Positions 24,571 to 29,984 of a stretch of 64,000 nucleotides of DNA are shown here, piece after piece. The notes beneath the pieces are model-generated. The model worked only from the letters and a program-made list of their open reading frames with translations. It did not search any database and was not told where the DNA came from. Where the stretch lies: assembly GCA_021818465.1 (NCBI GenBank), contig JAKAEA010000001.1, positions 375,712-439,711 on the forward strand, written 5' to 3'. Numbering within the stretch: the first letter of the stretch is position 1; each line of letters opens with the position of its first letter. Made by a program: the position numbers and the translations under genes. Source of the stretch: a bacterium. Its GTDB lineage: Bacteria; Patescibacteriota; Minisyncoccia; Phycocordibacterales; JAKAEA01.

Positions 24571-25230
24571 GTGCGTCAGTTTGTCATACTTATTATGAAG
24601 TTTTTGGGCACCAATAAAAAAGTCTCCCTGGAAAATACAGGGAATTTTGATACATCTTCACAAACTTCTCTGAGTGACATTGATTTAATTGAACGTTATT
24701 GTGATGGCGATGAACAAGCATTCACGATATTAGTTACACGGCATGCTGCTGTTGTATATAGTTTTGTTGTTCGATATGTTGGTAGTGGAGCTGAGGCGGA
24801 AGATATTGTACAAGATGTGTTTGTGAAGACGTGGAAAAATTTAAAACGTTTTGATACAAAACGAAATTTTCGTACCTGGATTTTTACTATTGCAAAAAAT
24901 ACTGCACTCGATTGGTTAAAAAAGAAAAAACCAACTGCGTTTTCAGAACTACATACCAGTGATGAGAAGGCGCCTGCATTTGAAGAAACTTTAGCGACCG
25001 ATGAGCCATTACAAAGCGATGTGCTTGAACAGCGGCAAACGCACGAAGCTTTATCTGCGGCGCTGGCAACACTGTCAGCAGAATATCGTGCCGTTGTGCT
25101 CTTGCGGTTAGATAATCAGTTCACATTTCGAGAGATTGCTGAAGCACTCAACAAACCATTAAATACTGTAAAGAGCCACTATCGGCGGGCAGTTAATGTA
25201 CTCAGTACTAAACTTGGTCGCACCAAATAA
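24571..25230 (+). CDS. ECF (group 4) sigma factor
   Basis: Region 2 (IVQDVFVKTWKNLKRFDTKRNFRTWIFTIAKNTALDWL) and region 4 (EYRAVVLLRLDNQFTFREIAEALNKPLNTVKSHYRRA). Confidence 0.8.
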   Translation: MRQFVILIMKFLGTNKKVSLENTGNFDTSSQTSLSDIDLIERYCDGDEQAFTILVTRHAAVVYSFVVRYVGSGAEAEDIVQDVFVKTWKNLKRFDTKRNFRTWIFTIAKNTALDWLKKKKPTAFSELHTSDEKAPAFEETLATDEPLQSDVLEQRQTHEALSAALATLSAEYRAVVLLRLDNQFTFREIAEALNKPLNTVKSHYRRAVNVLSTKLGRTK

Positions 25231-25254
25231 ATACATACGTTCGTACAAATAGGT

Positions 25255-25662
25255 ATGCATCAAACGATTTCCACATCAAATATAAAACGCCTTACGCCAC
25301 CAATTGATTTAGTACGTCGTATTTTACAACGTATAGAAATTGAAAAATTGCGTCAAAAAGTTCGTCGTTCGTTGGTTGCGTGGATTTCAATAACGTGTCT
25401 ATCCGTCGCCGGTCTTGTTGTGACCGGTATATTCTTTTTTCAAGAAGCGGCCACTTCTGGTTTCAGTGCATATATAAGTCAAATGTGGGCCTTACTACGT
25501 ACCAATCCCGGTCTTGTGATAGAACACTGGCAAGATATTTTAACATCTGTCAGTGAAGCATTACCGGTTGTTGGTTTGGTAGGTGTTGCGATAACTATAG
25601 GACTTGCACTCTGGTCGGCTGATAAAGTCATTGGTTTTGGAAGAAAATGGAGAGCGGTATAG
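25255..25662 (+). CDS. Putative membrane-anchored anti-sigma factor (assigned by position only)
   Basis: Lies immediately downstream of the ECF sigma gene. Cytoplasmic N-terminus, two TM helices. No zinc-binding anti-sigma motif is seen. Confidence 0.3.
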   Translation: MHQTISTSNIKRLTPPIDLVRRILQRIEIEKLRQKVRRSLVAWISITCLSVAGLVVTGIFFFQEAATSGFSAYISQMWALLRTNPGLVIEHWQDILTSVSEALPVVGLVGVAITIGLALWSADKVIGFGRKWRAV

Positions 25663-25683
25663 CAATTTCAGTCTCATATTTTT

Positions 25684-28022: not shown

Positions 28023-28041
28023 TACGTGTGGTGTGATTGTT

Positions 28042-28767
28042 ATGATTGAATGTAGAAATATTGTTAAAACGTATCGTAATGGTGATAATGAAACCAAAGC
28101 TTTGCGTGATGTATCATTTACGATTGCCGATGGTGAATTCGTTGCTATTATGGGACCATCCGGTTCTGGTAAATCAACCCTCATGCACATTCTTGGTTGT
28201 TTAGATACGCCAACATCGGGCACCTATATTCTTGATAATCACGACGTGTCGAGAATGTCAGATGATGAGTTAGCAGATATTCGTTCTAAAAAAATTGGTT
28301 TTGTTTTTCAATCTTTTAATTTATTACCGCGCGCTACCGTGATGCGCAACGTTGTATTGCCACTTATGTATAGTCCCACCGTGACTGACGATGAACGGAA
28401 TAAGCGTGCAGCTGATGCGCTTTTATCAGCGGGACTTGCCCAAGATCGTTGGCAACATTTTTCCAATCAACTTTCTGGTGGGCAAATTCAACGTGTGGCT
28501 ATTGCTCGAGCGCTTGTTAATAATCCCGCACTCATTATGGCTGACGAACCAACTGGCAACTTAGATACTCGTACTGGCGAAATTGTTATGGGAACGTTTC
28601 AACGTCTTAATGAAAAAGAACACCGTACTATTGTGCTTATTACACATGAATTAGACATAGCTGCTCACGCCGATCGCATCATTCATATCCGCGACGGTGT
28701 GATAGTAGACGACAGTATTAACCATCGTAAAAAAGTCGTTGATCAATCATTGTCGCACCATATATGA
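28042..28767 (+). CDS. MacB/LolD-type ABC transporter ATP-binding protein
   Basis: Walker A GPSGSGKST, the ABC signature LSGGQIQRVAIARAL and Walker B IMADEPTGNLD. I placed the start at ATG 28042, 20 nt past the upstream stop. Confidence 0.85.
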   Translation: MIECRNIVKTYRNGDNETKALRDVSFTIADGEFVAIMGPSGSGKSTLMHILGCLDTPTSGTYILDNHDVSRMSDDELADIRSKKIGFVFQSFNLLPRATVMRNVVLPLMYSPTVTDDERNKRAADALLSAGLAQDRWQHFSNQLSGGQIQRVAIARALVNNPALIMADEPTGNLDTRTGEIVMGTFQRLNEKEHRTIVLITHELDIAAHADRIIHIRDGVIVDDSINHRKKVVDQSLSHHI

Positions 28768-29984
28768 AAATAAAGGATTTATTTAACGAAACGACCGCCG
28801 CGCTTCTTGCTAACAAGGTACGCTCTGGTTTAACTGTTCTTGGTATTGTGATAGGCATTGCGTCGGTGATTGCTATGATTTCTATTGGCAACGGTGCGTC
28901 TGGTTCCATTCAGTCAAGCATTCAATCTCTCGGTTCTAATTTACTCATTGTTGTACCAGCTGCTGCACGAGTTATTGGTGGCGGTGCTTCAGCGGGGCGA
29001 GGTAGTGCTCAGAGTTTAACTGTTGCTGACGCGTCTGCTATTGCTTCTCAAGTTGCAAATGTTGCCGGCGTGGCTTCAGAAGTCTCAACACGTCAACAGG
29101 TAGTTGCGGGAGCAAATAATACGAATACCACCATTGATGGGACCGATCCGACATATCCATCGGTGCGTAATCTTACTATTGCTAACGGAGTTTTTTTTAC
29201 TAATGTTCAGGCGGCAAGTCTTGCAACAGTTGCGGTGTTAGGACCAACCACCGCGAGCGATCTTTTTGGTAACGTTGATCCCGTTGGTCAAACAATCACT
29301 ATTCGGGGTGTTCAATTTACCGTTATAGGTGTTGCTGCGAGTAAGGGTGGTACAGGATTTAATAACATTGATGACCGCGTCTATATTCCATTACGCGATG
29401 CGCAAATTTTTATGACCGGTAATCAATATGTCAGTGATATAAATATTGAAGCGGCGTCAGCTGGTGCTATGCAGCAAATTCAAAATGATACAACGACGCT
29501 CCTTTTACAACGTCATAATATTTCCAATCCCGCTAATGCTGATTTTAGTATTATTAATCAAGCCGATATTCTTTCTACCGCATCGAGTGTTACCACAACA
29601 TTAACTATCCTTCTTGCTTCCGTGGCTGGTATTTCACTTCTGGTTGGTGGTATTGGTATCATGAATATGATGTTGACCACGGTCACCGAACGTACTCGCG
29701 AAATTGGTTTACGAAAAGCAATCGGCGCTAAGAAAAAAGATATCAATATGCAATTTTTAATGGAATCGGTGCTCCTCACGTTTGTAGGAGGTGGTATCGG
29801 TATTATTCTTGGCGTTGCCATCGCCTTGCTTATCAGCGCCACAGGTATTATGCAAGCGAGCATCTCTGTTTTTTCAATCATTCTAGCTTTTGGTGTTTGC
29901 GCAATAATCGGTATTGCTTTCGGTTATTACCCGGCGCGTCGAGCAGCCAATCTTAACCCCATAGAGGCATTGCGCTACGAGTAG
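28764..29984 (+). CDS. MacB/FtsX-like ABC transporter permease
   Basis: ATGA overlap with the ATPase gene. An N-terminal TM, a large extracytoplasmic domain, then a C-terminal 3-TM FtsX-like bundle (LTTVTERTREIGLRKAIGAKK). Confidence 0.8.
   Translation: MKIKDLFNETTAALLANKVRSGLTVLGIVIGIASVIAMISIGNGASGSIQSSIQSLGSNLLIVVPAAARVIGGGASAGRGSAQSLTVADASAIASQVANVAGVASEVSTRQQVVAGANNTNTTIDGTDPTYPSVRNLTIANGVFFTNVQAASLATVAVLGPTTASDLFGNVDPVGQTITIRGVQFTVIGVAASKGGTGFNNIDDRVYIPLRDAQIFMTGNQYVSDINIEAASAGAMQQIQNDTTTLLLQRHNISNPANADFSIINQADILSTASSVTTTLTILLASVAGISLLVGGIGIMNMMLTTVTERTREIGLRKAIGAKKKDINMQFLMESVLLTFVGGGIGIILGVAIALLISATGIMQASISVFSIILAFGVCAIIGIAFGYYPARRAANLNPIEALRYE

Follow-up and report, generated by a model that had tools for sequence, protein, structure and literature searches.

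In Bacillus subtilis, yknWXYZ belongs to the core regulon of SigW, a sigma factor of the extracytoplasmic function (ECF) type (PMC3498285). Spr0693 of Streptococcus pneumoniae, the adaptor of a related pump, forms a hexameric tube with a helical barrel 56 Å high, which is thought to deliver substrates to the wall zone (PMC5768738). Control of the ECF sigma factor SigY requires both the +1 protein YxlC and the +2 protein YxlD, small membrane proteins encoded in its operon (PMC7826278, PMC4105308), and CnrH (ECF291) is encoded beside a full metal efflux-pump operon (PMC7826278). Here we describe a block of six genes in a 64,000-nucleotide stretch of DNA from the metagenome-assembled genome of a member of the Patescibacteriota (assembly GCA_021818465.1, contig JAKAEA010000001.1, positions 375,712 to 439,711 of the forward strand). 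This whole stretch is called the window, and all coordinates below refer to it. The products of the block are an ECF sigma factor, the small membrane proteins X and Y, a membrane-fusion (periplasmic adaptor) protein, an ABC ATPase and a MacB-type permease. The Patescibacteria, or candidate phyla radiation (CPR), are a lineage without an outer membrane. In the reading that we prefer, and to which we assign a probability of roughly 0.6, the block is a Patescibacteria-wide operon for an ECF-linked, YknXYZ/MacAB-like envelope detoxification pump working in a cell that has no outer membrane, with X and Y controlling the sigma factor.

Nine closely packed open reading frames (ORFs) occupy 24123-31379 of the forward strand, and six of them make up the block studied. 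They are the genes for the sigma factor (24595..25230, 211 aa), X (25255..25662, 135 aa), Y (25684..26178, 164 aa), the adaptor (26211..28022, 603 aa), the ATPase (28042..28767, 241 aa) and the permease (28764..29984, 406 aa). All six agree with public gene calls (GCA_027341405.1, contig DAIEME010000001.1). An earlier annotation of the window, made from its letters and referred to below as the original prediction, started the sigma gene at an alternative GTG at 24571; the probable start is the ATG at 24595, as in the public gene call. The start of the ATPase gene was corrected to the ATG at 28042, 19 nt past the adaptor stop. From sigma to permease, the intergenic gaps in the window are 24, 21, 32, 19 and -4 nt. 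ATGA junctions and short overlaps had been said to join the genes, and this is true of the ATPase and permease genes only, where the start of the second overlaps the stop of the first (ATGA, 28764-28767); the other four junctions are the gaps just given. The intergenic space is too small for the X, Y, adaptor and ATPase genes to have promoters of their own, unless these lie inside coding sequence.

The evidence that carries the argument is the conservation of this block. An alignment of 46 adaptor homologues led to 80 loci from species-representative genomes, whose ORFs were searched with the proteins of the window, and synteny was counted over the 72 distinct loci with at least 2 kb 5' of the adaptor gene. 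An ECF sigma gene was found upstream on the same strand in 57 of these 72 loci. In 51 of the 57 the sigma factor was orthologous to that of the window (phmmer E below 1e-30), and among these 51 loci Y was detected in 50, X in 45 (by single-sequence search) and at least one of the two in all 51. The gene order was always sigma, X, Y, adaptor, ATPase, permease, and the median gaps along it were 30, 5, 8, 6 and 2 nt. It can be seen from the adaptor sequences how distant these loci are: identity to the window across related loci is 27-64%, and 27-38% in most. Their titles name Paceibacterota/Parcubacteria (Taylor-, Kaiser-, Nomura-, Zambryski-, Staskawicz- and Portnoybacteria), Uhr-, Buchanan- and Doudnabacteria and one Peregrinibacteria bin. 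A few contigs labelled Gammaproteobacteria or Magnetominusculus are short contigs of metagenome-assembled genomes and may be mis-binned. The flanking genes vary among loci. As a check seeded with X, two members of its family of 366 were looked up, and both sit in the same six-gene block, one of them with a normal-length, 390-aa YknX-like adaptor. The original prediction had suggested that the genes form one operon and had made conservation of the neighbourhood in related genomes a measure of its proposal. The operon is upheld by a gene order kept in dozens of distant Patescibacteria at median gaps of 2-30 nt, and the comparison of neighbourhoods is strongly in favour of the proposal. A functional link between the sigma-X-Y triad and the pump is therefore the best-supported conclusion of this work.

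Two further observations were made on the regions 5' of the adaptor gene. In four loci (L014, L020, L044 and L074) a more distant ECF sigma factor (E 1e-18 to 1e-23) is encoded there, X and Y were undetected, and a different regulatory partner may lie in the gap of ~800-1300 bp. In about 11 loci a membrane protein with a ferric-reductase domain (NOX-like), often together with a cytochrome b5, is encoded just 5' of the cassette on the same strand (L002, 3790-5519; L004, 3675-5444; L046, 4456-6308; L077, 4517-6417; L078, 5218-6985; L087, 1497-3228; also L005, L056, L067, L069 and L080). In L078 the ferric-reductase/cytochrome b5 pair stands between the sigma gene and X; the window has neither gene. 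The recurrent association hints at a redox, iron or haem connection, such as a redox-related signal or substrate.

The sigma factor matched Sigma70_r2 (PF04542; 2.3e-23, 82 bits) and Sigma70_r4_2 (PF08281; 4.1e-13, 49 bits), both above cut-off, and TIGR02937 with 111 bits against a cut-off of 43. The presence of regions 2 and 4, no match to region 3 and the length of 211 aa place it among the ECF (group IV) sigma factors, in agreement with the original prediction. Its closest solved relative is B. subtilis SigW (5wuq, 1.5e-24), and CnrH matches it at 5e-11.

The pump was likewise identified from its domains, and all three components named in the original prediction, a HlyD-type adaptor, a MacB-type ATPase and an FtsX-like permease, were confirmed. 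The term tripartite used for them holds for the number of exporter components and fails in its Gram-negative sense, since the cluster encodes no outer-membrane factor. The adaptor matched HlyD_3 (1.5e-12) and TIGR01730 (145 bits against a cut-off of 95), and HlyD_D23 and Biotin_lipoyl_2 were also matched. Its AlphaFold model has a mean predicted local distance difference test score (pLDDT) of 84. The chain opens with a transmembrane (TM) helix (residues 3-34), after which come, in this order, a lipoyl domain that is split, the helical domain (104-347), the beta-barrel and the membrane-proximal domain, and it closes with a Gly-rich tail that is disordered (576-603). Lipoyl domain, helical hairpin, beta-barrel and membrane-proximal domain thus stand in the canonical nested order of a membrane-fusion protein. 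In a Foldseek search against the PDB, the best matches were MacA in MacAB-TolC (9qgy_G, 8.3e-19; 5nik_D, 2.7e-18), followed by AcrA, MexA and EmrA; there were 73 matches at E up to 0.001, and the top 50 listed were all adaptor proteins. Among the adaptor homologues, the precomputed Pfam annotation gives Beta-barrel_YknX, BSH_YknX and YknX_C. No OEP-family gene for a TolC-type partner was found in the cluster, to which the search was confined. The adaptor's own OEP match is sub-threshold (17 bits) and lies within the coiled coil.

The helical domain of the adaptor consists of a helix of ~69 residues (104-172, kinked at 130-132), a small beta element (184-196), two helices of ~30 residues (201-229 and 240-270) and a return helix of ~76 residues (272-347). 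Judged from this secondary structure, the helices would form a long hairpin, ~100 Å if straight, with an extra short hairpin at the tip. The 46 homologues are 543-660 aa long (median 588), with a helical domain of 220-325 residues (median 245) and a tip segment of 82-117 (median 94), and most of them have a Gly/Ala/Thr-rich C-terminal tail. The A/Q-rich helices and the Gly-rich tail that had been described for this adaptor are accordingly real. The 603-aa protein had also been called unusually long. It is so in comparison with model organisms, the best-matching MacA chains in the PDB having ~340 residues, and it is not so within its own family; the lengths of the 46 homologues indicate that the description fits the whole CPR adaptor family and not this gene in particular. 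A 49-residue insert with a predicted helix in the beta-barrel (residues 443-491, window 27537-27683) recurs only in the four homologues closest to this one, where it measures 51-79 residues; at that position nearly all others have 11 residues and two have 14-16.

The ATPase matched ABC_tran (6.9e-34), and its Walker A (GPSGSGKST), signature (LSGGQ), Walker B (IMADEP) and H-loop are readable. Its type is best given as MacB/LolD/DevA: the best NCBIfam match is the N-terminal half of MacB (4.4e-72), below the equivalog cut-off, and the scores against LolD and DevA are nearly equal to that against MacB. The permease is of the MacB type (type VII), with the extracytoplasmic domain MacB_PCD (PF12704; 2.4e-45, 156 bits, residues 21-244) and a C-terminal FtsX domain (PF02687; 2.5e-22, 80 bits, residues 286-399), and its best NCBIfam match is the C-terminal half of MacB (2.4e-69). 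The pair is not an orthologue of E. coli MacB as defined by the equivalog NF007826: the two halves are separate genes and score 243 and 234 bits against a cut-off of 966. Nor is it of the BceAB type, the permease being 406 aa long with a single FtsX domain and the cluster encoding no kinase or response regulator. No Yip1 match, which would mark a YknW component, was found among the genes of 24123-31379. PADLOC returned generic ABC and LolE-like matches only and no defence system.

Word-based homologue searches gave three close relatives of X and five of Y, and for X an exhaustive profile search was needed. Among 1.84 billion representatives this search returned 366 members, nearly all of 120-150 aa. 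X begins with ~40 basic residues (10 Lys/Arg in residues 1-41) that contain a conserved PPxxLxxxI helix motif and are taken as cytoplasmic. Two hydrophobic segments follow around an acidic loop of ~40 aa with the pattern SGFxxYxSLxFSD...W...ESxP, and the protein ends in a basic tail. The basic N-terminus, the acidic loop and the basic C-terminus fit an N-in/C-in topology. Neither the window copy nor the family had a significant match in Pfam, NCBIfam or the PDB. Anti-sigma domains of class I are N-terminal, ~80-90 aa long and often carry an H-x3-C-x2-C zinc motif. X does not belong to this class (ASD/ZAS): it has ~40 residues before TM1, a single Cys and no HxxxCxxC, and zf-HC2 and RskA were matched by none of 39 X-family members even at E up to 1. 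Faint matches to anti-sigma models do occur in the family: PRK13920 in three members (best E 0.01), NF052375 in two, RsiV in one and CnrY in one (E 0.08). The original prediction had put the first small protein in the anti-sigma position, and as to position it was right, for X immediately follows the sigma gene in at least 45 of the 51 loci; what the position does not bring with it is a recognisable anti-sigma domain. From position and topology, X is a putative anti-sigma factor of the ECF sigma factor.

Inside the X gene there is a terminator-like hairpin (25408-25445; 7-bp stem with 5 G-C pairs, then a T-rich run), which encodes the GIFFF of TM1. It could be an internal attenuator or a mere consequence of the Phe codons.

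In Y, a very short N-terminus leads into a membrane anchor; the protein also has a conserved juxtamembrane motif, and its C-terminal domain is beta-rich. PF18914 (DUF5666) was matched by 24 of 44 aligned Y-family members (best 3.1e-08); the Y of the window has no PF18914 match at E up to 1, and its membership of the DUF5666 family rests on the family alignment. Y may serve as an extracytoplasmic sensor or as a co-regulator. Its anchor is preceded by at most about 5-20 residues, and since Y has almost no sequence there, X is the sole plausible partner for a cytoplasmic sigma factor.

The Y-family profile also matched the designed eight-bladed beta-propeller Tako8 (PDB 6g6m/6y7o; E 9e-12, summed over seven repeated stretches). 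The match may reflect nothing more than a likeness between the strand pattern of DUF5666 and the blades of a propeller. A second Y-like gene lies directly 3' of the permease gene in L013 (11560-11967), L038 (4017-4439), L080 (7610-8071) and L087 (8446-8856), the last one annotated as a weak DUF5666 match. At this position the window carries a gene for an unrelated 89-aa protein.

Taken together, these features lend themselves to the following mechanism, which is drawn by analogy. The pump would act as YknXYZ of Bacillus or Spr0693-0695 of Streptococcus do. ATP-driven movements of the extracytoplasmic domain of the permease would push substrates from the outer face of the membrane into the adaptor tube, and the tube, lengthened by its helical domain of ~245 residues, would release them into the wall zone or past it. 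Likely substrates would be amphipathic toxins, for instance antimicrobial peptides. X might use its short, basic N-terminal helix to keep the sigma factor at the membrane, and Y, with its DUF5666 domain assumed to face outward, might modulate X in response to an envelope signal. The freed sigma factor would then raise its regulon, probably including this operon.

Several results weigh against this reading. X has no anti-sigma domain recognisable in Pfam, NCBIfam or the PDB, and its N-terminal region of ~40 aa is half as long as a class I domain. The AlphaFold model of Y (5 sequences) has a pLDDT of 41.6 and is unusable, and the outward topology of Y is an assumption. The pump occurs without sigma, X or Y in 13 of the 72 loci. 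The remaining points concern transcription. The sole promoter-like element found in the window is of the housekeeping type, the sequence AAC-N15-18-CGT occurs once in 23900-26300, at 25068 within the sigma gene, and no conserved dyad was found around the sigma starts. The dyad search, for a 5-mer and a 4-mer 13-19 nt apart in 280 nt around 59 sigma starts, gave a best dyad that 6 loci had in common, where shuffles reached 4-5, and the top dyads were AT-rich without exception; the anchoring of the starts is imprecise, so that this is a weak negative. Without an AAC..CGT site and without a conserved dyad, autoregulation by the ECF sigma factor is unsupported.

The housekeeping-type element is the sequence TGTTATAAT at 24540-24548, a perfect extended -10 lying 46 nt 5' of the sigma ATG, whose function is putative. 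It has no good -35 element, and for this reason a promoter scan did not list it. TATAAT-like boxes are visible 5' of several other cassettes. As read from the sequence, the element suggests a basal expression independent of the ECF sigma factor, and basal transcription by the primary sigma factor is plausible. The original prediction had proposed a search for an ECF promoter of the AAC..CGT type upstream of 26211 and 24123; none was found at either place or 5' of the sigma gene at 24595. Across the related loci the AAC-N15-18-CGT pattern is not enriched 5' of sigma genes: it was present in 6 of 59 loci, while shuffles gave 11.5 ± 3.2. Since other ECF groups have motifs of their own, the missing AAC..CGT is no proof against autoregulation.

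A 27-nt element, CATACCTGCTGAGAGCAGTATTCAAAA, was noticed 65-100 nt 5' of the sigma gene in three Parcubacteria loci (L047, 2332-2358; L072, 6397-6423; L071, 6386-6412). Its inverted repeat still pairs in L071 in spite of changes on both sides (CGGCT...GCCG), and to judge by this pairing it is a candidate operator or 5'-leader hairpin.

The transcription signals bear on a second explanation, that the pump is a constitutive exporter for envelope biogenesis, moving a lipid, glycolipid, lipoprotein or wall component as DevBCA and LolCDE do, without stress induction, and that the sigma factor is expressed from that same housekeeping transcript while controlling other genes. The extended -10 directly upstream and the lack of an ECF-type motif speak in its favour. 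That many very small genomes keep the cassette points to a core function, and the MacB superfamily includes biogenesis machines, the ATPase here scoring nearly equally against LolD and DevA. When the specific models are used, however, the match is poor: DevB reached 64 bits against a cut-off of 129 and lolCE 42 against 362. Loci with a pump and no triad, and extra pump copies in some, fit an accessory or defensive use, and the strict co-occurrence of sigma, X, Y and pump argues for a regulatory link. We consider a biogenesis exporter rather unlikely.

A Bce-like arrangement, in which the pump itself is the sensor, was also considered. X would then read the conformational cycle of the permease or adaptor and free the sigma factor according to transport load, with Y as the coupling element. 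Bce-type modules (BceAB-BceS) contain a kinase that has two membrane helices, to which a transporter of the MacB superfamily signals its activity. The invariant order and the tight X-Y-adaptor spacing (median gaps 5 and 8 nt) would agree with such an analogy, as would the build of X, which has only two membrane helices and a small loop and no obvious ligand-binding domain. On the other side, the permease is of the 4-TM MacB type and not of the 10-TM BceB type, and Y has a folded domain that could serve as a conventional sensor. We think it quite improbable that the pump is the sensor. A bolder proposal can be built on the same comparison: sigma, X and Y would be a new, CPR-wide class of ECF signalling, with a minimal two-helix anti-sigma factor X unrelated to known anti-sigma domains and a DUF5666 partner, physically coupled to a MacB-type pump, which would put the sigma factor under the control of transport load, as an ECF counterpart of Bce-type flux sensing. 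This is offered as a speculation that is probably wrong and yet worth keeping in view. If it were true, an ECF flux-sensing module might be among the few conserved envelope-sensing circuits in reduced episymbionts, and the elongated, cap-tipped adaptor tube would be an adaptation to the unusual CPR envelope.

The genes on either side raise the question of whether the block is a dedicated secretion system for a neighbouring product. The gene at 24123-24449 encodes a Tyr-rich peptide with a hydrophobic, signal-peptide-like N-terminus, a body rich in Tyr, Gln, Pro and Cys (YYQPYYQSYCPQQYYQPAYC...) and the end GGWRGGFHRGGWHR. Downstream, after a 76-nt spacer, follow the genes for a membrane-anchored protein of 89 aa (30061-30330) and a protein of 345 aa (30342-31379), which begins with a signal peptide and contains QTEAPQ repeats and, towards its C-terminus, a helical part; the two, at 30061..31379, have no Pfam match and are lineage-specific neighbours outside the conserved core. 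The original prediction had counted both the peptide and the repeat surface protein as parts of the module, and neither claim could be maintained. Between the peptide gene and the sigma gene lies an intrinsic-terminator-like hairpin with a T-run (24478..24510; the hairpin, 24478-24503, has a 9-bp stem with 7 G-C pairs and is followed by TTTTTTATTAT), which forms the upstream boundary of the module, and the promoter-like site described above comes after it. The peptide has no Pfam match and no homologue in any fetched related locus, and in the nearest relatives cytochrome b5 and ferric-reductase genes are found in the position 5' of the sigma gene. The terminator, the promoter-like site, the different genes in relatives and the lack of a homologue all indicate that the peptide gene is a neighbour and not part of the module. 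The peptide was accordingly rejected as a pump substrate, as it is unconserved, lies beyond the terminator/promoter boundary and has a signal-peptide-like N-terminus of its own. The 89-aa/345-aa pair stands downstream of the cassette only in close relatives (L002/L003/L006 and L004). In distant loci the 345-aa homologue lies 5' of the sigma gene, in L029 (1-948) and L031 (5145-6291), and the 89-aa homologue is found in L031 only. As the repeat protein adjoins the cassette in a few lineages only, it is not core, and the pair is at most a loose associate of the cassette. A secretion system could appeal to genes that are close together on one strand, and to this adjacency of the pair, on one side or the other, in a few other lineages. 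It is contradicted by the boundary 5' of the sigma gene, by the other genes that take the place of the peptide in related loci and by a core cassette that in most loci comes without peptide or repeat protein, and the hydrophobic signal-peptide-like N-termini of the peptide and the 345-aa protein suggest Sec export; we hold it to be very improbable. That the genes share no function and are adjacent through inherited order only is hardly credible, for although the synteny of the closest relatives extends to the unrelated gidB, adk, a LOG-family gene and FKBP, the six genes are nearly contiguous and keep their order at 27-38% adaptor identity across many candidate phyla with wholly changed flanks.

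Farther out in the window, 15333-24074 encodes a 2913-aa protein with a glycosyltransferase-like region and glycoamylase and GH94 domains, which resembles cyclic beta-1,2-glucan synthase; the gene is very large for a small CPR genome, and L002 and L004, both close relatives, lack it at that position. Just beyond a convergent gidB, at 32175-33771, lies another ABC exporter (ATPase and ABC2-type permease), unrelated to the one described here. An Rfam scan of the window returned tRNAs only.

Patescibacteria have tiny genomes and few known regulators. A sigma circuit that is kept together with a pump across many of their lineages therefore probably matters to cells living on or close to a host, for instance in surviving membrane-active compounds. 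X and the DUF5666 protein Y are two uncharacterised families that become candidate regulators of an ECF sigma factor, and an adaptor with a predicted helical tube far exceeding those of the model pumps in length bears on how MacB-type pumping works without an outer membrane. Genes like macB are common in Patescibacteria (PMC12455944). A literature search gave nothing specific on this cassette in CPR; its coverage was incomplete and it is no proof that the cassette is undescribed. What appears undescribed is the set of genes conserved together in Patescibacteria, X and Y as partner families, and the extended adaptor. All catalytic parts come from known superfamilies, and ECF-linked transporters have been described before; nothing here overturns current understanding.

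Among the described systems, E. coli MacAB-TolC provides the best structural match of the adaptor, with the same order of adaptor domains, and MacB is the best NCBIfam match of both ATPase and permease. It differs in that the cluster described here has no TolC-like gene, that ATPase and permease are unfused, that the adaptor is ~230 residues longer and that the MacB scores are far below the equivalog cut-off. In gene layout the block resembles sigY-yxlCDEFG of B. subtilis (ECF31), where an ECF sigma gene is followed in one operon by genes for two small membrane proteins. The sigY operon continues with ABC transporter genes, and that transporter has no adaptor and is not known to be of the MacB type. 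The likeness is one of layout; that X or Y is related in sequence to YxlC or YxlD was neither tested nor seen. The cnrYXH-cnrCBA locus of Cupriavidus metallidurans (ECF291) likewise combines a sigma factor, a short membrane anti-sigma factor and an anchored extracytoplasmic sensor with the efflux pump that they control. There the gene order is another one, the pump is of the resistance-nodulation-division (RND) type with an outer-membrane factor and the sensor binds metal, and similarity in sequence to the present block is faint only (CnrH with the sigma factor, CnrY with one X member). YknWXYZ and Spr0693-0694-0695 are likewise MacAB-like pumps of cells without an outer membrane, and they too have a membrane-anchored adaptor, a separate ATPase and a 4-TM MacB_PCD/FtsX permease; YknX-type Pfam labels are found on homologues of the present adaptor, and among solved proteins the sigma factor is closest to SigW. 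In contrast to YknWXYZ, there is here no YknW (Yip1) component, and X is unrelated by sequence to B. subtilis RsiW. The adaptor differs from those of YknXYZ and Spr0693 by its helical domain of ~245 residues, the extra tip of ~95 residues and the Gly-rich tail. Finally, sigW-rsiW lies outside the yknW-yknX-yknY-yknZ unit (PMC3498285), whereas in the Patescibacteria the sigma factor and its two partners share the operon of the pump.

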